Translations under genes and position numbers: made by a program | IMG/VR virus record: IMGVR_UViG_3300027419_000046 | Span: 1-46,593 of that record | Direction: 5' to 3' (one strand) | From: a virus | Lineage: Duplodnaviria > Caudoviricetes | DNA length: 46,593 bases | The notes under the pieces: model-generated | Database searches by the model: none | The model's input: the letters and a program-made list of their open reading frames with translations, nothing else | What the model was told of the DNA's origin: nothing | Part shown: positions 6,344-34,576 of the stretch, in pieces | Position numbering within the stretch: the first letter of the stretch is position 1 | Layout of the letters: every line of letters starts with the position of its first letter

Positions 6344-7099
6344 TTATTTATTGTAAATTTTCTTTTTCCTATAATAACCCCAAAAAATGGGATTTAAAGG
6401 GTCTGAATCATTAAAATTAAGAATATCATTCTTCTGCACTTCACAGTCAATTAAAGTAATCTGCTCATTGTATTTGACAAATGCCAGTTCATGAGCACTT
6501 TTAAGGTTTTTGGTTCTATTCAAATCTTGAACTGTGGGGCATATTTTCTTCTTTGGGAGTAGGTCATCTACTTCATAACCTACATGAATTGATGGTGCTT
6601 TTAAGATTAATCCGCACCGGCTGCAAATATTAAGGGCATGTTCAATAAGGTTCTGTTTATTTTCGCACTCGGGACATTTTACTTGGTTGTCTTTGAGGTA
6701 TGAAATACTGAAAGCTGGTAAATCATTATAGTTGTGATGGTTAAGAGGAAACTCTGCTCCACTGAGGGTGCTTTTATGTTTCCTCTTATCATAAGTATGG
6801 GTAAGAAATGTGTGACGCTTTTCTTTTTTAATAATACTTTGTTCTTTTTTAAAATTAGGATTTCTATGAGCTCCTATTTGGACATTCCCTACTCTTCTAG
6901 AATTTTCTATTTCGGGATATTTCTTTTTATATTCTCTCCTAGCTTTCCTATTACTTACTAAAACAGATTCACGGAGACATTTGGCCGAACAATACATTTT
7001 ATTTGGTTGAGTTGAAAAAAACTTTTTAATGCATCCATCATTTTGGCCCCTTCTGCAATCCCTCAAATAAACCTTTGTGTAAGGAGGAATTGTTTTCAT
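6344..7099 (-). CDS. Zn-finger protein with TFIIB-type Zn-ribbon-like motif; candidate late regulator
   Basis: C..C...YCS..C motif at the N-terminus; CPEC-x(13)-ICSRCGLIL internally. Confidence 0.5.
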   Translation of the reverse strand: MKTIPPYTKVYLRDCRRGQNDGCIKKFFSTQPNKMYCSAKCLRESVLVSNRKARREYKKKYPEIENSRRVGNVQIGAHRNPNFKKEQSIIKKEKRHTFLTHTYDKRKHKSTLSGAEFPLNHHNYNDLPAFSISYLKDNQVKCPECENKQNLIEHALNICSRCGLILKAPSIHVGYEVDDLLPKKKICPTVQDLNRTKNLKSAHELAFVKYNEQITLIDCEVQKNDILNFNDSDPLNPIFWGYYRKKKIYNK

Positions 7100-7920
7100 C
7101 CTAATTCCTCCAGTTCATTCAAAACTAAATTATGAACTATTTCCGCACTCAGGGGGTCGTAGAACATTCCTAAAGATTTAGTGTGTTTATTATGCATCAC
7201 ACGGGATTGCCACGCCTTTTTTTCAGGATTGCATTTTTTATGTAATCCTACTCCTGTGAATCCGAATAGTCCTTTTCTTCTCTGCGATTCACCCATTTTT
7301 TTACAAATTTCGGGAGAAAACTTTTTCCCATAATTATGATTTTTCTCGCCTTTGTGCGCCTCACTCAGTTTTTTACGGACTTCCAATGACAATTTTTTGC
7401 CTTTATGTGCTTCACTAATTTTTTGCCGATGATCTAATGATAATTTTTTTCCTTTTTTTGTTTCACTAATTTTTTGCCTAATTTTTTCAGAATGGGGTTT
7501 TCCATATCTAGGATGTTCCGAACCCATTTTACCATACCATGGGGCCTTTTCACCTTTACGTGCTTCACTCATCTTTCTGCGGGTTCTTAGTGATGGTTTC
7601 CCATTGGCCCCTCCCGATTGAAGATTATAACCTTTTGAATCATCTAAACAATTATAACTTTTTATATAATCATATTCTAATTTGTCGAGTGTTTTTTTAT
7701 CAGTAGCGTAATTTAAGACAGTGAATTTAAAATTAAGTTCCCCATAATTATTATATGAGGATTGTAAATGAAGATTTTTATGTTTTTTATTCCTTAACTC
7801 ATACAAATGAGATGAATAACGTTTTGATGGATTTAAAGTAGTCTGTCCAATATAGATCTTACCATTTACTAAATTCTCTATTTTATAAACATACCCATAT
7901 GCCACGTATCCTCCCTCCAT
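7096..7920 (-). CDS. GIY-YIG homing endonuclease with NUMOD3 repeats
   Basis: GYVYKIENLVNGKIYIGQT; repeats of S.E.R.KISEA.KG; AP2-like C-terminus. Confidence 0.9.
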   Translation of the reverse strand: MEGGYVAYGYVYKIENLVNGKIYIGQTTLNPSKRYSSHLYELRNKKHKNLHLQSSYNNYGELNFKFTVLNYATDKKTLDKLEYDYIKSYNCLDDSKGYNLQSGGANGKPSLRTRRKMSEARKGEKAPWYGKMGSEHPRYGKPHSEKIRQKISETKKGKKLSLDHRQKISEAHKGKKLSLEVRKKLSEAHKGEKNHNYGKKFSPEICKKMGESQRRKGLFGFTGVGLHKKCNPEKKAWQSRVMHNKHTKSLGMFYDPLSAEIVHNLVLNELEELG

Positions 7921-12504: not shown

Positions 12505-13293
12505 TTATTCCTCCGATTCAATCCTTGGGGTTGTTAAAAGCTTTAATTGACCCACCCCTTCATAATCAAAAATAAGTAACAAAGGCATATCAACATCAAG
12601 CCCAAGGGTTACTTCATCTGAGAATGTGGTCCTACTACTGAGTAAAGAATTAACTCTGAGGGTTTGATAAACTCCCCAAACCTTTTCCTTATAATCTGTG
12701 TCTGTTTGGAATGAGGCCTTCATTGATAAATTGGGGGTTTCATTGCCGTTTTCATAGACTTCAGCATAACAGGTGAGTATGTGGTCTGTTTCTCCTGAAG
12801 ATTTGAAATAAAGCTTATCGGAAATAGAATTAGCTGCACAAACTGCGTCTTTTAAATCCTTAACAGGTAAAGTGAACTTAGCAGGCCACTCTATTTTTGG
12901 GGCTGCTGGGACTTTATCATATTTTTCAAGAGTTCCAAACTGTAATTTAAATTCAATCTCATTCACATCATTAGCATATTGCAGGGTTAGGTAATTTTCA
13001 TCAACTGTGATGAATAACTCCCTGCCATTTCTGTAAGCTGCTAATACTCTCCTTAAATCTTCACAATCTGGTAAGAAAATCATTTCTTCATCTGAATTGC
13101 ATTTAAAATGTTCGGGTTTTAATTCTAGAATAGCGAAGGAAATATGTGATCTGTCTAATACAATGAATTTTAAACCGTCCTCTGAAACAACTAAATTAAT
13201 AGTATTTTTAAGACTTTCAACCAGTTTAAGAGCATTAATAACCCTCTTTGAACCCTCTTTATCAAACATTGCTTTTGCAATCATTTTATACAC
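12505..13293 (-). CDS. pcn: PCNA (archaeal-type sliding clamp), divergent
   Basis: GLKFIVLDRSHISFAILEL (PCNA D.SH motif), DMPLLL.F, C-terminal PRIESEE; 262 aa. Confidence 0.88.
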   Translation of the reverse strand: MYKMIAKAMFDKEGSKRVINALKLVESLKNTINLVVSEDGLKFIVLDRSHISFAILELKPEHFKCNSDEEMIFLPDCEDLRRVLAAYRNGRELFITVDENYLTLQYANDVNEIEFKLQFGTLEKYDKVPAAPKIEWPAKFTLPVKDLKDAVCAANSISDKLYFKSSGETDHILTCYAEVYENGNETPNLSMKASFQTDTDYKEKVWGVYQTLRVNSLLSSRTTFSDEVTLGLDVDMPLLLIFDYEGVGQLKLLTTPRIESEE

Positions 13294-19222: not shown

Positions 19223-19257
19223 ATACTTTGTTACTTGTAGTATATATACTTTACTTT
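19223..19257 (-). promoter_or_regulatory. Archaeal promoter/operator, copy A
   Basis: Minus strand AAAGTAAAG-TATATATA-CTACAAGTAACAAAGTAT; 32/35 identical to 20818-20852. Confidence 0.7.
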
Positions 19258-19274
19258 GATACTTGTATACTTTG

Positions 19275-19311
<37 letters not shown>

Positions 19312-19363
19312 GATAATAAATAATATAATAATAAGTAAAAAAAGATACGAGACGATCTGACAA

Positions 19364-19437: not shown

Positions 19438-19914
19438 TTAGAAAATTTCTTCAAAACTCCCACCCTGTTTAGTTTTCAAGTGGTGTTTTACTATTTTGTC
19501 TTTAGCTTCTTCAGGCATCATGGCCTTTACCTGAGCCAAACCAACTTCTCTAAAATCAGCCAAATCTTGAAGGCGATCCAATCCAATATTTCCCTCATTA
19601 TTAATAATTTTCAAAGCAGTCGCAACAACAGCATCTACTTCATTATCAATTTCCTGATCAATTTCAGCTGCATTTTCTTGAATTTTAGTCTCAATGTCAT
19701 ATTCTTTCATTAAAGCATTCTTTTTAGATTCTAACTCTTCAATTTCCATCCTAATAATTTCAGCCCGATCTTTAGCATGGATCCGCCTTCTAAGATAATC
19801 TTCATAATCAGCCGTCCTATCTGGAATAATAGTTTTAGATTTTCTAAAAAGTTCGGCGTCTATTTTCATATAAACACCGACGCCGTTTTTTGCACGGCGC
19901 CCCATTATGCACAC
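19438..19914 (-). CDS. RHH-like plus coiled-coil protein (regulator or initiator candidate)
   Basis: [17 protein letters not shown] strand-helix pattern, heptad segment; abuts the repeat region. Confidence 0.5.
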
Positions 19915-20789
19915 CTCAAATAACCTTCTTGCGGTTCATAAACCACACCTTTGCGTTTCAATTGCCTAATTAAATCTTCTATTTGTTTAACAGACATGTG
20001 ATAAGAATCCCTCATTGCAGTTATAACTAGATTAGCGGGGGCCCTACCACCATATTCTTCTTCTAATTCTTTTATAATTGTTTGAACTACCCGTATTTTA
20101 TCCCTATCAGACATAGGAGTTCTTTTACCATCTTCACTAAAACTAGCATTTGATAAATATTCATTAGAATAAAAATCTTTTGTATCTTTTAATATCAATT
20201 CATGGGCATTAATTTCTTCAGAATTGATTATTAAACGAATAACATCTTTTTTGGGTTTAAAAATTAATTGAGAATCAAATAAATCATTTATTAATATCCT
20301 TGTTTTTTGTTCAGGAATTTTATGTTCCATTGCCATTCTTGTTATAATAAGGGGTAATTCTACGCCCCATAATTCTTCAAAAGAATTATAATTCCCTTCA
20401 ATAACTTCCATAAATTTTAAAAATCCGATTACCTTTTCATGGTCATGATTCAAATATAACTCCTTTTCCGTAATGGTAGAATCAATAACAGGTAATTTTT
20501 CTAAGATATTTTTTTCACTAATACAGTAACAATTTAATTTAAATGAATCTACAAACGATTTTAAACCACCTTCATATCTAAACCATTCCCCACATTCCCT
20601 ATATTCATTAAAAATTTCATGGAGTATTTTTTCTAGATTTTCAGTTCCAGGAATTGTATATATTATTTTTAATTTAACCGGGCTGGCTGTCTGCAAATCC
20701 CTTAAACGTTGTTTTGGGTTATTTGCTATTCCTATTTTAATAAATTCTCCACTTGAAATAAAATAAATTTGTTTTAAATTATCTCCCAT
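19905..20789 (-). CDS. GIY-YIG (T5orf172/MUG113-like) nuclease fused to winged-helix domain(s), the last MCM-like
   Basis: IYFI...[21 protein letters not shown]...EK.LH..F...R..GEWF; C-terminal DRDK...YGGRAP...[15 protein letters not shown]. Confidence 0.8.
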
Positions 20790-21333
20790 GAAATCCCTCC
20801 GATACTTTAATTAAAGGATACTTTGATACTTGTATTATATATAATTTACTTTTATTAAAGTAACAAAGTATATAAGTAAAAAGAGAATAATATATAATCA
20901 AGGAAAACATATAAAGAGGTGATAAAGTGATAGAGTCCGAAAGTAAACCTATAATTGGAGCAACCAATATGCCTAAAAAACCAAAGATGATCAATACAAG
21001 CGTACAGATCCCGGAAGAAAAATACACACTATTGGAAAAAATCAAAAAAGAAACTGGCACTCCAATTTCTAAACAACTCTTAGAAGGAGTGGATTTGTTA
21101 ATCATTGAAAAAGAAGAACTTTTAAACAAATCTGCAGAAAAGGCTACTATCGAAGCCGATGAGATGAAATCTACTATCGCATCAATTAAATCTAGTAGAC
21201 AATAACCCTCACCCTTTTTACACTTATACTCGTTTTCACAACCATTACGGCCCTGTCCATCTGGCATGGATAGGGCCACATTCTCACATAGGACCTGGAC
21301 TCCAGGTACTGATAACATTTTCAGCACCTGCAC
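20779..21333 (-). CDS. Possible small Cys-rich protein whose frame runs antisense through the RHH gene
   Basis: N-terminal ~50 aa has an SD (CAGGTG) and four Cys; the remainder looks like antisense shadow. Confidence 0.3.
20818..20852 (-). promoter_or_regulatory. Archaeal promoter/operator, copy B
   Basis: Minus strand AAAGTAAAT-TATATATA-ATACAAGTATCAAAGTAT; divergent from the RHH gene. Confidence 0.7.
20927..21205 (+). CDS. Ribbon-helix-helix transcriptional regulator (repressor candidate)
   Basis: [38 protein letters not shown]; GAGGTGA SD; divergent orientation. Confidence 0.8.
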   Translation: MIESESKPIIGATNMPKKPKMINTSVQIPEEKYTLLEKIKKETGTPISKQLLEGVDLLIIEKEELLNKSAEKATIEADEMKSTIASIKSSRQ

Positions 21334-21851: not shown

Positions 21852-22190
21852 ATCACAGAAAAAAAGACGATTAAAGTAACAGTTAATAAAAATCTATATG
21901 ATGAATTCATGCAGACCGCTTTAAGAATGGAAGGATATAAGAAAGGCAGACGACGTATAAGTGCAGAAAAAGCGATGAGATTATACATAAACTATTCTAA
22001 AGCATTCAAAGACAAAAGACTTTTTGAAGTAGCACGAGAAAACAATCTTGAAGTCTGGGAAGTGGGAGAACTATTGATTGAAAGGTTTATGATGGTCCAC
22101 ACAGAACTAGGGCTGGATCTAAATTATATTACAAATGATGAACATTTTAAAATGGTAGTGCGTTATTTAAAAACTTATAAACCAGATTAA
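21852..22190 (+). CDS. Second RHH-like regulator, probable ATC start at 21852
   Basis: In-frame extension ITEKKTIKVTVNKNLYDEF before the ATG at 21909 supplies the RHH beta-strand; AAGGAG SD; in-frame TAA at 21837. Confidence 0.6.
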   Translation: MTEKKTIKVTVNKNLYDEFMQTALRMEGYKKGRRRISAEKAMRLYINYSKAFKDKRLFEVARENNLEVWEVGELLIERFMMVHTELGLDLNYITNDEHFKMVVRYLKTYKPD

Positions 22191-23440
22191 CTGCCTTTAT
22201 TTGCTTTCTCTTCCTCTAATTTTTCCTTATCCTTCTTTGTGATCTCCCACATTTTATATTTCTCTTCTAATCTATCCATCCGGGCCCGGTCCGCATCCCG
22301 TTCTTTTTTATGCCGTTCTTCCTGTTCCTGTCTTAAACGTTCCGATTCTTCTTTATCCTTAATCCTTTGAGCTTCAACTTCTTTTATCTTTTCATCCGTA
22401 TATTGATGAACTTCTAATCGTTTTAAGACCGTAACCATTCCCATATTTTTATAATATTTTCCGTAGAGCTCCTTAATCTCAGGTAATAAATATACTCCAC
22501 GGGTGGAGTCTAGGTCTCCATGGCCTAATAACCGGTCTGAATCTTCATAACCAAAGTCAGTCTTCTTCAATTGATTACCAAACCAACGGCGGATATGGTG
22601 GCTTCTGAAATATGCGTATCCGTCCTTCCCTTTTCCAAAGTTACAATCATTATTTATCTTCTTAAAAATATCATTGAAGGTTCCATTTGTGAGTTTTCTC
22701 CCTTCATCAGTTCTGAAAATATAAGTTTCCGGATCCACGTTGGGTGGGCTGTAGTTGAAGTAGTCTAATACTGCATGGAAGCTTTCAGGAGTTGAAAAGG
22801 TAACATAGTGACCCCCCGTTTTCATCCGGTTAGTCACCCAAATAAGAGGACCTATCTTTTTCACCCAATCCGGCCGGTCTTCCCATATATCGGGCAAGTC
22901 TTTCACAGTGATTTTGTTATACTTCTCTACGGCCTTCACCAGGTCCTGGAGGGTTAAATTCCTGATTTCCTTCCGGGCCATACCGGAACTGGCAATCTGT
23001 AATATAATTGCCTTATTTCGTACTCCAGTGTTACTAATCGCAAGTTCAATATCATCCCTGTCTGGCAGGTCTTCAACTGTGATGAATTTTTTATCCTTCA
23101 CTTTCACTGTGATTGGTTCCGGGACCCAGAACCTGTGAGATTTATAAAAACTGCGGATGGTACCCATGGCAGATCTGCGGGTGTTGTTACTGTACTTTTT
23201 TGTGAGATGTTTCTGGAAATCATCTATATGTTCGCAGATTCTTCTTCTTCTTTCCCTGACTCCGTTTTCCTCGTCTTCTTCGGCCTCATCATAGGCCATG
23301 GAGGGTGTTAAGCCCGTGCATTCATAGTAATGTAAGAATCTGTAAACGACTAATTCTATTGATTTGGGATTTAATTGACGTTGTTTAACGTATTTAATCA
23401 GTCGTGGGTCTTTTTCTATTAATTTCTTGTCGGGATTCAC
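22187..23440 (-). CDS. int: Tyrosine recombinase/integrase
   Basis: RNKAIILQIASSGMA..EI..L, R.KT, HHIRRWF (HxxR), LLGH, downstream Tyr; N-terminal SAM-like domain. Confidence 0.92.
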   Translation of the reverse strand: MNPDKKLIEKDPRLIKYVKQRQLNPKSIELVVYRFLHYYECTGLTPSMAYDEAEEDEENGVRERRRRICEHIDDFQKHLTKKYSNNTRRSAMGTIRSFYKSHRFWVPEPITVKVKDKKFITVEDLPDRDDIELAISNTGVRNKAIILQIASSGMARKEIRNLTLQDLVKAVEKYNKITVKDLPDIWEDRPDWVKKIGPLIWVTNRMKTGGHYVTFSTPESFHAVLDYFNYSPPNVDPETYIFRTDEGRKLTNGTFNDIFKKINNDCNFGKGKDGYAYFRSHHIRRWFGNQLKKTDFGYEDSDRLLGHGDLDSTRGVYLLPEIKELYGKYYKNMGMVTVLKRLEVHQYTDEKIKEVEAQRIKDKEESERLRQEQEERHKKERDADRARMDRLEEKYKMWEITKKDKEKLEEEKANKGS

Positions 23441-23876: not shown

Positions 23877-24599
23877 TCATGGCTTATAAAACACCATCAC
23901 TGATTTTTGATTGCTCACTGCATTAATCGCACTGGTTATCTGGCTATAAGTGAACTCTTTAATTCCTTTGGTGGGGTCGGCTACTCTTACCCTTTGTGTG
24001 GTTTGATTAACACCGACTAAGAATATATAATGTCCATAGTCATTACTCCATACACTGTTGCCATTGGCATCTGTTTTAAGGTTCCCGGTTCGTATATGTA
24101 AGATTATTTCACAGTTATTCTTTAGTTTAGTGATGATTCCAGGGAAACCAATATCACTGAGATAGTATTCAGCTATATCCAGGTTCGGAACTAACTTTCT
24201 CATGGCACTATATAACTGTTCATGGCTGGTTCCGGATGAGGTGGTACCTGCTAATGATGCAATTTGGCTTTCATTAAATGATAGTCCCATAGCACTGAAT
24301 ACCATTTGAGCACTTGAAGGACCGCAGGTATAGCCAGTATCTTGGAAATCTTGACTATATAACCCGGTTAGTGTCCATCCACTGGTGTCTGTTGGTAGTG
24401 TTATAGTAGTATCATATATCCAAACTTTAGGGGGGTTTGCACCTTTATCTTGTCGGTATTTTCTAACCCTATTCCGGGCATCAATCAAGTTCGCTTTGGT
24501 AGGGTTAGCAGTACCTATTAACCCTTTAGCAGGGCAATCGTCTATCCATCTCTCTAATAAATCGACATACTCATCATAACTTGCATTATAGTCGCTCAT
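23877..24599 (-). CDS. Endolysin: C39-family peptidase (PeiR-like pseudomurein endopeptidase) with N-terminal binding domain
   Basis: Q...YTCGPSS.QM (Cys), GTT..GT, GHY (His), V.VADP (Asp); last gene of the late operon. Confidence 0.85.
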   Translation of the reverse strand: MSDYNASYDEYVDLLERWIDDCPAKGLIGTANPTKANLIDARNRVRKYRQDKGANPPKVWIYDTTITLPTDTSGWTLTGLYSQDFQDTGYTCGPSSAQMVFSAMGLSFNESQIASLAGTTSSGTSHEQLYSAMRKLVPNLDIAEYYLSDIGFPGIITKLKNNCEIILHIRTGNLKTDANGNSVWSNDYGHYIFLVGVNQTTQRVRVADPTKGIKEFTYSQITSAINAVSNQKSVMVFYKP

Positions 24600-24735: not shown

Positions 24736-25818
24736 TTAGGGTAAAATGGTCTTGAAAAACAAATTAGCGAGATCAAAATGACCCAAATCATTCAAATGAA
24801 CCCCGTCACCATTCATCCGCTCCGTATAAATAGCCGAATCCATATAACGCTCATCTAAATCAATCAAAGCACAATCATTCTCATCAGCTAAGTCATATAA
24901 TTCCCCTTTGAAAAAAGACCAAGGTATTGTAGAAGTGAGGGGTGCTGGATTTCTTCTAGGTTCAACAACTAACAAACAGTCTCCAAATTTCTTAATTTCC
25001 GTTATTAAACTTTGTAAACTGGATTTAAACGAATCAACTAGGGTCGGATCAACATTCTGAGAACCATAATCATTTGTTCCTAACATGATGACAGATAGAT
25101 CTGGGGTGAAAGGATCAACACAACAGTAACAAAGGTCTTCAAGAGAAGAGTATCTGAATTTATAGGCTGCCGCCCCTGCTTTTGCTACCCTGTTTACTAT
25201 GATGCCCCATGTTGTGGGTTTTATTTCTTGGAATCCTTGGAATAACATTTGCTGTGCTTCTGAGCCGGTGTATTTAATTATACAAACATGGTCTCCGTTT
25301 TCCAATCCCGTGATTGAAGTATTTGCAGATCGGAGTGTAGTGCCACCCATGTCATGTGTTTCTTCTTCTCCCCCATCTATACTGGTTGTAAATGTTCCGT
25401 TTCCGTCTCCTTGGCGGTAGAATAGTTTTATTCCAGTTCCGGTGAAGGGTATTGTTGCCGTTGCATTGGGGGTTGTGGTTTTCCATTCCCCTAACATCCC
25501 GGTGGGGGTGTTTACGTTTTTCTCACTCCAACCTTCACTATATGTGATCCAGTATGTAGGGGAACTCCAAAACCAAGGAGGTATGAATCCTGAACCTGTG
25601 TCTGCGTATTTATTTCTTAATTTATCCCGCAACACACCAGTCCATCCCCTTGTGTCATACCCTCTAACGGTTTGGAGATTGATTCCGGTTCCAACGTTCA
25701 TACTATTCCCTATGAGATTCAAATATAGTAGAGTGTCTTGGTCTGTTTCCATCGCTGTGACTTTATCATGCCAACCACTTATCCCTTCAAGGTTATACAC
25801 ATTTCTAGGTGGGTTCAT
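24736..25818 (-). CDS. SGNH/GDSL hydrolase-family protein (probably tail-associated esterase)
   Basis: IGNS (block I), LGTND (block III), DGVH (block V); inserted beta-sandwich. Confidence 0.85.
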   Translation of the reverse strand: MNPPRNVYNLEGISGWHDKVTAMETDQDTLLYLNLIGNSMNVGTGINLQTVRGYDTRGWTGVLRDKLRNKYADTGSGFIPPWFWSSPTYWITYSEGWSEKNVNTPTGMLGEWKTTTPNATATIPFTGTGIKLFYRQGDGNGTFTTSIDGGEEETHDMGGTTLRSANTSITGLENGDHVCIIKYTGSEAQQMLFQGFQEIKPTTWGIIVNRVAKAGAAAYKFRYSSLEDLCYCCVDPFTPDLSVIMLGTNDYGSQNVDPTLVDSFKSSLQSLITEIKKFGDCLLVVEPRRNPAPLTSTIPWSFFKGELYDLADENDCALIDLDERYMDSAIYTERMNGDGVHLNDLGHFDLANLFFKTILP

Positions 25819-32597: not shown

Positions 32598-33908
32598 TTA
32601 TACTAGCTGGTTACGACTCGCGCAAGTTACATCGGCAACTATCCATCTTCCGTCTACATAAACCATACAATCACAGTGTGCGTAACCATTACAAACTTGC
32701 CCACATCGCCTATATGCCTGCACATTTATGGCAGAACACATCTGTTGCATCAAGAGTGATTGGTCGTAACAGTTTCCTTGGCCTATTTGTAAAACCTGGA
32801 GCGGCGTGTACTTGAAATTATAATAAAACTCGTATCTGATGTTAGCATCAATCCAACGCCTAATAGTCCTAGGGTCTCCAAGTTCCCGGGCCTTAGCAGC
32901 CACAGGGTCCGAAACTGCATTGATAATCTCAGCAGGGATGACATAATTATTTGTGAATGTTCCCTGAGTCTGTCCCGGGACCTCATAGATCCACTCACTA
33001 GGAGGTGAAGGTTGACCATTCAAAAGGTCAATCTGATGTTCTTCTGTGTTTTCATTGATTGTTGTTCTTACATTCTGAGTGTAATAAGATTTAACACCAT
33101 ATTTGCTCCATTTGGGAGGGATTACAATTATCCACATCCCTGCAGCCATTTTATCAAGAAGAGGTGTTGTGATACTTCCTGAAAACTCCAGTTTACTACC
33201 GGAATTAAATAGCTCAGTGGCTTTGGCCCTGCCCTCAGCTTCTGTTTTCAGGCTGGTATCTGCTATAATATCTTCGATAAATCCATAGCGCCCTATTAAT
33301 GTATCATCCTTTATTTGCGATAGGAACCGGTCATCTTCACCAAATGCACTGACTGCCGTGATAATATTTGATGAGTCCTGGGACAATTGTAAATCTGTGT
33401 AGCTGGGAGGGTAGAAAACATAACCTTCAGTGAGTTCGGGGATTGTTCGGAGTATGGCCACATTATCACTGTTGACAAAGAACTCCATGTTTGTCTCAAG
33501 ATTTGCGAGCTGGTGGCAAGCATCAACCACTTTTTTAGAATGGAATATAAGCTCGCTGTGGCGCTTACTGGTTGCTGTTATCCCTCCGGTGTTTAATCCA
33601 CGGTGGTTAAGGAGTTCTATGATTATTTGACTGCTAGTGTAATTATGCCATGCCCGGTATAGTTTACCGTGGAGTAATCGGGTCCAGTCCATACACTCGT
33701 AACTGTATCCTTCATCGGTTTCTCTGTCTTTTGTGATGAACCCACCAAAAGCCCGGTGTTCTCCGGTTATTTGTACTTTTGGGTTTAATCCGAAATCAAC
33801 CGGCTCATCAGTGGTGAAACTTGCAGTATCTGCGGCTTGGAGGGGGTTGGTTATGGAAACATCAAAAAATGGCACTCTTTCATTGTTGACATATATCTTA
33901 GTAGTCAG
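32598..33908 (-). CDS. Baseplate hub with C-terminal transglutaminase-like (C71/Pei-like) domain; probable CTG start at 33908
   Basis: Hub-like N-terminus; GNCYDQS...AH...W...D catalytic pattern; GGAGGGA SD before CTG ACT ACT AAG ATA TAT GTC AAC. Confidence 0.75.
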   Translation of the reverse strand: MTTKIYVNNERVPFFDVSITNPLQAADTASFTTDEPVDFGLNPKVQITGEHRAFGGFITKDRETDEGYSYECMDWTRLLHGKLYRAWHNYTSSQIIIELLNHRGLNTGGITATSKRHSELIFHSKKVVDACHQLANLETNMEFFVNSDNVAILRTIPELTEGYVFYPPSYTDLQLSQDSSNIITAVSAFGEDDRFLSQIKDDTLIGRYGFIEDIIADTSLKTEAEGRAKATELFNSGSKLEFSGSITTPLLDKMAAGMWIIVIPPKWSKYGVKSYYTQNVRTTINENTEEHQIDLLNGQPSPPSEWIYEVPGQTQGTFTNNYVIPAEIINAVSDPVAAKARELGDPRTIRRWIDANIRYEFYYNFKYTPLQVLQIGQGNCYDQSLLMQQMCSAINVQAYRRCGQVCNGYAHCDCMVYVDGRWIVADVTCASRNQLV

Positions 33909-33922
33909 ATAGATCCCTCCAT

Positions 33923-34576
33923 TTAGAGCGTCATTTTTGCTTTAGTTTCAGGATCCACTATTCCGGTTGCTGTTAGTCCGTTTGCTGTTTGGAAGGCTTG
34001 GACTGCTTTTTTTGTGTATTCTCCGAAATAATTATCAACGTCTAGGGAATGACCATCAAAATAAACGTAATATCCGAATAGTTTCAGGTAGGTTTGTAGT
34101 TCACCCACGCAGTCCGAACGGTCACCGAGGCTAAGGGTTGGACAATTAAGGAGGGGATTGGTTGTAGTGGTGTCCCCTCCCGCAGCGCCGCCTCCGCTGG
34201 AAGAAATGTTCCAACTTTCAAAATTAGTAAAGATAATATTCGGCTCGATATATTCCAGTAAGGTAATTGAATAACTCCAAACTCCTTTCCGACCCTCACT
34301 GGCCCTTATTTCTGTGATGTAATACTGGCCGTTGTATGTGGCCTCTGATTCTGAGGTTAAGACCAAAGGCGTTCCTTTTCGTTCTAAACTTTCTAACTTC
34401 TCAATCTGATCCTTACCAACGTAAACAGTTAAATCAAGCTTACGGCCTTTACTGCCTTTATGTTTAATGAACGAACCATCAGCCCCGACATAGGCCTTGT
34501 TAACTATGTTAAGCTGCGGGTCTTTTGATATGCTTTTAATTTTGAGTGGAATGTTGTCTAAGGAAACGTAAGCCAT
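33923..34576 (-). CDS. Tail tube initiator-like protein with C-terminal PG_binding_1 domain
   Basis: L..G.R..CV.ELQ..L...GY...VD..FG..T..AV.AFQ.ANGL..TGIVD..T. Confidence 0.8.
   Translation of the reverse strand: MAYVSLDNIPLKIKSISKDPQLNIVNKAYVGADGSFIKHKGSKGRKLDLTVYVGKDQIEKLESLERKGTPLVLTSESEATYNGQYYITEIRASEGRKGVWSYSITLLEYIEPNIIFTNFESWNISSSGGGAAGGDTTTTNPLLNCPTLSLGDRSDCVGELQTYLKLFGYYVYFDGHSLDVDNYFGEYTKKAVQAFQTANGLTATGIVDPETKAKMTL

Follow-up and report, generated by a model that had tools for sequence, protein, structure and literature searches.

Why would a virus of methanogens join the end of a host helicase to a nuclease? The window, the whole stretch of 46,593 nt that we analysed (IMG/VR record IMGVR_UViG_3300027419_000046), raises this question through one gene, P0001. 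The first-pass annotation described its product as a GIY-YIG nuclease fused to the C-terminal winged helix (wH) of an archaeal MCM, and the C-terminal peptide quoted there is present letter for letter in the open reading frame at 19905-20789(-). The questions are where this tail came from and what it may do for the virus.

Structure and setting of the chimeric gene

The gene and its neighbours comprise the following features, in window coordinates.

19905..20789, minus strand: P0001 chimeric gene, 294 aa, with GIY-YIG domain, older wH and MCM-derived wH
20571..20768, minus strand: T5orf172/MUG113 GIY-YIG domain, aa 8-73 (Pfam)
20220..20447, minus strand: middle, diverged MCM-type wH, aa ~115-190 (hhalign, AlphaFold2)
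19908..20123, minus strand: terminal MCM-derived wH, aa 223-294, 56/72 identical to Methanobacterium MCM
19438..19914, minus strand: downstream gene, likely start 19905, overlapping the P0001 stop
20818..20855, unstranded: 38-nt AT-rich element upstream of the P0001 gene, putative promoter/operator
19223..19260, unstranded: further copy of the 38-nt element, downstream of the next gene and preceding the early operon
19262..19350, unstranded: tract of very high AT content that includes a (TAT)n run, candidate for origin/unwinding
20927..21205, plus strand: divergent ribbon-helix-helix gene (RHH_3, 21.7 bits vs a cut-off of 21.6)

The T5orf172 profile matches aa 8-73 (E 8.5e-8, 33.1 bits) and the MUG113 profile aa 18-72 (E 1.3e-13, 51.8 bits). 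Both are above the Pfam cut-off, so the T5orf172-type domain proposed earlier holds. Residues Y9, K18, R28, E53, H57, and E68 are invariant in 11/11 members of the GIY-YIG-wH family, and we take R28 and E53 to be the catalytic residues from established knowledge of GIY-YIG enzymes. P0001 is predicted to be a GIY-YIG-family nuclease with intact catalytic-type residues. The AlphaFold2 model, based on a four-row alignment, has three folded domains with linkers of low confidence between them (mean pLDDT 63.6, pTM 0.36). Between P0001 and its allele P0002, dN/dS is 0.16 in the GIY-YIG domain, 0.08 in the middle wH, 0.18 in the terminal wH, and 0.17-0.19 in the linkers. Our profile search of P0001 detected neither the MCM N-terminal tier nor the AAA+ domain, and none of the catalogued defence systems in PADLOC matched at E 1e-5. 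An MCM pseudogene reading of P0001 was rejected. We also rejected an assembly artefact, since the same protein is found on two independently named contigs and P0002 is a close allele (dS 0.6).

The middle wH is an older relative of the tail. Pfam gave a weak MCM_C wH match at aa 149-183 (E 0.0014, under cut-off). Compared by hhalign with an alignment of 35 MCM wHs and 3 viral terminal wHs (A4), the region scored a probability of 95.2% (E 2.7e-8), and the Cdc6-1 control scored 0.4%. The degenerate second wH that had been suspected from the letters is thus of MCM type. It is common to P0001 and to P0002, P0003, P0008, P0025, P0028, and P0040, and is absent from P0004 and P0038.

The window is a whole tailed-virus record whose ends share a 127-nt repeat. 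A 95.9-kb contig has the gene twice, 46,466 nt apart, and thus represents the same circle assembled in duplicate. The window has matches to sheath, baseplate, integrase-like, C39 peptidase, and PCNA_N profiles, and six of the seven terminase matches are Methanobacteriales viruses. The record is a circular Methanobacteriales tailed virus. Among its other genes are a free-standing GIY-YIG/NUMOD3 gene of homing-endonuclease type (7096-7920(-)) and an integrase-family gene (22187-23440(-)) convergent with a small gene (21909-22190(+)), a pair that recurs in L002. Genes at 23877-24599(-), 32598-34576(-), and 24736-25818(-) encode a C39 peptidase, transglutaminase-like and PG-binding tail proteins, and a GDSL esterase. 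The C39 peptidase is a candidate pseudomurein endolysin.

The virus was said to lack its own helicase. We found no MCM P-loop in either of the two records searched, the window and the sister virus G001, and the Walker-A-like motifs are confined to the terminase and an 898-aa tail-region ORF. CheckV puts the completeness of both records at ~50% despite their terminal repeats, so absence of a viral MCM ATPase is likely, not certain. A joint system of P0001 with PCNA and PIP-tailed proteins had also been proposed. A divergent viral PCNA is encoded at 12505-13293(-). The sister virus, which has the same fusion, has no blastp match to this PCNA among its ORFs of at least 80 aa, so such a system is not supported. 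A loose scan of protein tails found no canonical two-aromatic PIP box.

The two copies of the 38-nt element are 89% identical, and L002 has an analogous element, likewise duplicated, that flanks the same pair of genes. The element may be a repressed promoter, and the ribbon-helix-helix gene is a candidate for its repressor. Placing P0001 first behind a repressed early promoter fits the duplicated element and the divergent gene; the repression itself we only infer. The downstream protein has an N-terminus that looks ribbon-helix-helix-like by eye, followed by a coiled segment. Its homologues are found in 15/328 Methanobacteriales genomes, in proviruses and as solitary chromosomal genes. At 0/12 homologue loci examined is there a GIY-YIG domain or MCM wH within 1.5 kb, and the flanks of these 12 loci are unrelated. 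Because the fusion is missing beside all 12, the P0001 gene is accessory and not an essential viral initiator. In several viruses an AT-rich tract comes after the downstream gene, with tracts similar to that of the window in L002, L067, and L160, and its product is a better candidate than P0001 for an origin-binding protein.

Origin and repeated capture of the terminal winged helix

The archaeal MCM wH profile (MCM_WH_arc, PF21120) matches aa 230-292 of P0001 at E 7e-30 and 103 bits against a cut-off of 26, and homology to MCM starts near aa 223. The top PDB sequence match is 2MA3, the C-terminus of M. thermautotrophicus MCM (E 6e-21), and the generic RPA2 wH reached E 0.56. In Foldseek, 2MA3 was again the top match and the sole one at E<=0.001. 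The tail is thus closer to MCM than to generic wH domains. Over the last 71-72 aa, identity to Methanobacterium MCM is 77-78%, compared with a median of 49% over the sampled host MCM wHs. When genomes were searched with the tail, 10/20 loci were 77% identical; all ten encode MCM and nine are titled Methanobacterium, in agreement with the resemblance to Methanobacteriales MCM proposed in the first-pass annotation. The FastTree phylogeny nests the terminal wH in the Methanobacterium MCM clade with L014/L016 (SH 0.98). Capture of the tail from a host-type Methanobacterium MCM is well supported. Two irregularities were seen among the host loci. L016 is a Methanobacterium-type mcm contig in a bin labelled Bacteriovorax and is likely mis-binned. 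L018 and L019 are identical mcm genes close to the two ends of a complete chromosome record (G006) and may be an assembly overlap.

The capture is old. Against the five closest host MCMs, pS of the terminal wH is 0.85-0.92, so that synonymous sites are saturated. This rules out a recent chance capture of an MCM tail. GC3 is 0.24 in the terminal wH, 0.38 in the host, and 0.16 in the rest of the P0001 gene; the terminal wH has drifted towards the viral level. The 78% protein identity, the synonymous saturation, and the GC3 drift together indicate that the tail was long kept by selection. Close host MCMs differ by 0-3 nonsynonymous per 18-28 synonymous differences. The terminal wH is under purifying selection, not exceptionally so, and evolves faster than the host copy.

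Its changes are not evenly spread. A stretch of 19 columns, from helix 2 through the turn to the start of helix 3, holds 10/16 changes in P0001 and 10/15 in P0002 (p 0.012 and 0.005 after sliding-window correction). The same stretch holds 9-39% of the differences among 43 host MCMs. No such clustering was found in the tails of P0003 and P0004 (p 0.11 and 0.18). Helix 1 and the EYGGRAP loop have stayed host-like in the viral tail, as have the last part of helix 3 and the hairpin. There is no charge shift towards DNA binding, as the net charge of the terminal wH is +2 versus +1/+2 in hosts.

A word-index search for relatives gave four proteins; with the tail as query, a full HMMER search yielded 123 representatives. 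Our Pfam scan covered 69/123, with most short fragments and long MCMs left out, and found seven further GIY-YIG-wH proteins, one GIY-YIG-MCM AAA+-wH, three HNH-wH, and two Mrr-wH. This brings the GIY-YIG-wH proteins to 11. Genomic context is available for four of them (the window, L002, L066, and L067), and the survey for the fusion elsewhere places all four in viral-type surroundings. They occupy the same slot, with an AT-rich element ahead of the gene and the fusion-gene stop overlapping the start of the next gene. In three of the four, those where the contig extends far enough, the fusion gene lies downstream of an integrase-like gene. The upstream region is almost identical in L002, L066, and L067 and the tails are very different, indicating that modules are swapped between close viruses. 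Scans of viral contigs with P0001, the downstream gene, P0038, and P0025 gave no matches, and scans with A1 and A2 returned L002 as the sole full fusion. Of 75 matching records of isolated phages, none covered 80% of P0001.

We built a maximum-likelihood (ML) tree from 72 columns of ten fusion tails and 26 host MCM tails, the latter chosen for spread from ~70. P0030 was excluded because its best host match is 34%. The tails of P0001, P0002, P0008, P0003, and P0004 cluster with the L014/L016 type, and L016 together with these five has UFBoot 79. The P0025 tail pairs with host L113 (UFBoot 100), and that of P0092 with P0022/L105 (UFBoot 100), where P0022 is a fragment assigned to MCM by its linker. 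The P0038 and P0040 tails fall inside the L102-L118 clade (UFBoot 86). FastTree placed P0003 and P0004 among long branches, apart from P0001, and the smaller ML tree joins them to it (UFBoot 68); these are drifted tails, with best-host identities of 51% and 43%. The AU test rejects monophyly both for the ten fusion tails (p=4.8e-5) and for the seven tails whose proteins share the middle wH (p=0.002). Since the tails nest with different host MCM lineages and monophyly is rejected, the tail phylogeny indicates that capture occurred repeatedly and follows host lineages. The fusions sit on long branches and the hosts on short ones, a pattern consistent with transfer from host to element. In the tree of the GIY-YIG domains, one origin is neither backed nor rejected (AU p 0.34).

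MCM winged helices on other archaeal proteins

PF21120 matches 323/328 Methanobacteriales genomes. By manual reading, ~52 genomes have more than one match, mostly weak ones in 155-200-aa frames. We classified 20 chromosomal stretches as follows.

GIY-YIG-AAA+-wH: 2/20 stretches, L034 and L036, with tails in a different host clade (78-88% identity)
AAA+-wH without N-tier: 4/20 stretches, two adjoining an HNH gene
PIN-wH behind an HD-domain gene: 1/20 stretches
wH-HNH in a provirus sharing genes with the window: 1/20 stretches, L049/L158
HEAT-wH: 2/20 stretches
Unknown-wH: 4/20 stretches, one between Pycsar- and BREX-type genes
MCM or MCM-like: 4/20 stretches; fragment: 1/20; weak generic wH: 1/20

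A GIY-YIG search of the 328 genomes gave matches in nine, and the only wH-bearing ones, L061 aside, are the two GIY-AAA-wH genes. These genes (L034:7693-9180(-) and L036:4033-5520(-)) encode 495-aa proteins with GIY-YIG, MCM AAA+, lid, and wH. Walker A is kept and the Walker B region is degenerate. The L034 gene adjoins OLD/TOPRIM, SMC-like, and MrfA-type helicase genes, and this nuclease-MCM fusion is independent and possibly defensive.

Other arrangements are diverse. L043:866-3061(-) is a split, reordered MCM, with AAA+-wH followed by MCM_N-OB-HNH, and adjoins an integrase-type gene. L038:3389-5082(-) has an AAA+-wH gene and then an HNH gene, and P0057 is a single MCM_N-OB-HNH-wH chain. L046:1879-3021(+) is a PIN_8-wH protein behind an HD-domain gene. 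L045:3774-4409(+), which lies between Pycsar-type and BREX genes, encodes a protein with a wH tail; P0009 resembles it and has a tail 90% identical to a host MCM. The provirus in L158 (G140), which shares window genes, has wH-HNH (L158:13441-14085(-)) in place of GIY-YIG-wH. P0117, P0125, P0019, P0100, and P0030 comprise fusions of the type Mrr nuclease-MCM remnant-wH and pairs of MCM wHs in tandem, archaeal and apparently non-Methanobacteriales. Across archaeal sequences, the MCM wH is thus fused also to HNH, PIN, Mrr, and degenerate MCM ATPases. Such wide grafting of the module speaks for a function that can be reused, and a passive reading is allowed as well. The survey reveals chromosomal MCM-fragment-nuclease genes, several near defence genes, of which we found no description in the literature searched.

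Possible roles of the captured tail

The closest known design is Odn (gp88) of vibriophage ICP1, a T5orf172 nuclease whose aim is set by a domain captured from a replication protein (PMC8263062, PMC10448857), with Odn-like genes in coliphages Inny, Muut, and Mt1B1_P17. Like P0001, Odn joins T5orf172 GIY-YIG to a domain captured from a replication-initiation protein, is accessory, and has its captured domain swapped to fit different targets; the coliphage homologues also carry a second, diverged copy of that domain. Unlike P0001, Odn took from a satellite its RepA_N domain, which binds DNA and reads iterons, whereas the donor of P0001 is the host helicase. P0001 differs further by its wingless C-terminal wH, for which a protein-contact/regulatory role has been reported, and by its archaeal virus. 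By analogy, P0001 appears Odn-like in design and is not an Odn. Its tail resembles the archaeal MCM wH (PF21120; 2MA3, 2M45; PMC4357721) in sequence, fold, and terminal position, but is attached to a nuclease, without N-terminal tier or AAA+, and is altered from helix 2 through the turn to helix 3. The MCM genes of Haloarcula tailed virus 3 and Methanocaldococcus fervens tailed virus 1 also end in an MCM wH. Those genes are of 670-740 aa or annotated as helicases, and the wH matches that we inspected in isolated archaeal viruses are full-size genes (743 and 674 aa), whereas P0001 has the tail alone, on a nuclease. Free-standing T5orf172 homing endonuclease genes share the catalytic domain, modular C-terminus, and patchy distribution, but P0001 has C-terminal modules from a host replication protein and a fixed slot heading the early region. 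No description of a nuclease-MCM wH fusion was found in the open literature as searched by titles and abstract starts, where subscription compendia of methanogen viruses may be missing. The fusion is real, selected, recurrent, and apparently undescribed.

The explanation that we favour, at just under an even chance, is delivery of the nuclease to the chromosomal origin by a tail that docks on host Cdc6/Orc1. The captured wH would bind what the host MCM wH binds, Cdc6/Orc1 on the origin, and the docked nuclease would nick or cut origin-near DNA and compete with MCM loading. Expression would come early in lytic growth, after release of the repressor. Host initiation would then halt, and MCM and nucleotides would be freed for a virus that borrows the host helicase. 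The tails of related enzymes match other host lineages, which suggests that the tail is likely a borrowed address label to the host replication machinery. A lineage-matched copy is what a mimic of a protein contact would need, and the independent joining of the same tail to HNH, PIN, and Mrr nucleases also counts for docking. The archaeal MCM wH lacks canonical wings, and DNA binding by SsoMCM is independent of it (PMC4357721); a Sulfolobus MCM wH is reported to contact origin-bound Orc1-1 (PMC12141716).

Several points weigh against docking. We found the wH-Orc1 contact documented for Sulfolobus only. The Cdc6 contact of M. thermautotrophicus was reportedly mapped to the N-terminal part of MCM. 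The Cdc6 WH of this species binds MCM, and Thermoplasma Cdc6-2 failed to bind either the N- or the C-terminal MCM part alone (PMC2553600). The dN/dS of the terminal wH is not below that of the linkers and is far above host-host values. The drift of the P0003 and P0004 tails away from the hosts and the lack of support for one origin in the GIY-YIG tree count against docking too. Since many non-nuclease proteins end in the MCM wH, the domain may be a terminal module that grafts easily.

The strongest rival, which we consider unlikely, is a selfish gene of homing-endonuclease type whose two wHs were co-opted for DNA binding, with their MCM origin reflecting easy recombination with the mcm 3' end. 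T5orf172 genes are typical phage homing endonuclease genes that swap DNA-binding domains (PMC10448857). The gene is patchy, as its absence at the 12 neighbour-gene loci illustrates, its modules are shuffled between close viruses, and the window and sister virus bear other free-standing genes of this kind. The changes in the tail are concentrated in the helix-turn-helix, the canonical DNA-reading part. However, the wH is wingless and dispensable for DNA binding by MCM, and its net charge is unchanged from the host. Repeated, lineage-matched re-capture of one domain by four nuclease families is also unexpected if any DNA-binding module could serve.

Ranked behind it, and rather unlikely as well, is binding of the tail in trans to the AAA+ tier of the MCM ring or to fork proteins. 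The fusion would damp the helicase or tether the nuclease at forks, for degradation of host DNA or for processing viral replication or recombination intermediates. In SsoMCM, the ATPase is attenuated 3- to 5-fold by the linker together with the beginning of helix 1, both of which touch AAA+ (PMC4357721), and no part of the viral copy is better kept than helix 1. That contact, however, is intramolecular and made partly through a linker helix outside the captured segment. The two chromosomal GIY-YIG-MCM AAA+-wH fusions could join MCM rings, and the related RPA2 wH is reported to bind primase and PolD (PMC11686378).

A literal Odn analogue is improbable. Such an enzyme would be aimed at rival mobile elements, either those that bear an MCM, whole or in fragments, or those whose own initiators recruit the host MCM. 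ICP1 Odn is the precedent, and Methanobacteriales accessory regions do contain extra, split, or truncated MCMs (L035, L038, L039, L041, and L043), but the closest relative of the tail is chromosomal MCM and no sampled accessory copy.

Most improbable is an adaptor that redirects host Cdc6/MCM to a viral origin beside the gene, as the first-pass annotation had allowed: no viral helicase was found in the window or sister virus and an AT-rich tract lies 0.6 kb downstream in several viruses, but an MCM mimic would bind the loader and not the helicase, catalytic-type residues are retained, related proviruses keep the neighbour gene without the fusion gene alongside, and neither virus has a mini-ORB cluster. 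The mini-ORB motif, derived from host cdc6-1 regions, has 5-11 copies in each of nine host stretches beside cdc6-1; the window has only two, scattered in coding DNA, and the sister virus one, and the number of matches in the window is in keeping with chance (5 vs 3.0 expected).

Beyond P0001, the docking explanation extends to a broader idea, to which we give appreciably less than an even chance. The MCM tail may be a portable origin or replisome label that viruses and accessory islands place on unrelated nucleases (GIY-YIG, HNH, PIN, and Mrr) and renew from the mcm gene of each new host, so that these nucleases would be aimed by protein mimicry and not by DNA sequence. The finding touches on how helicase-less archaeal viruses stop or seize host initiation. 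For studying how MCM and Cdc6 of methanogens meet, the viral wH, at 78% identity with one face changed and everything else preserved, is a ready probe. Should the tail guide the nuclease, P0001 would be a protein-mimicry version of Odn turned against the host's own replication, and it may offer a handle on methanogens.
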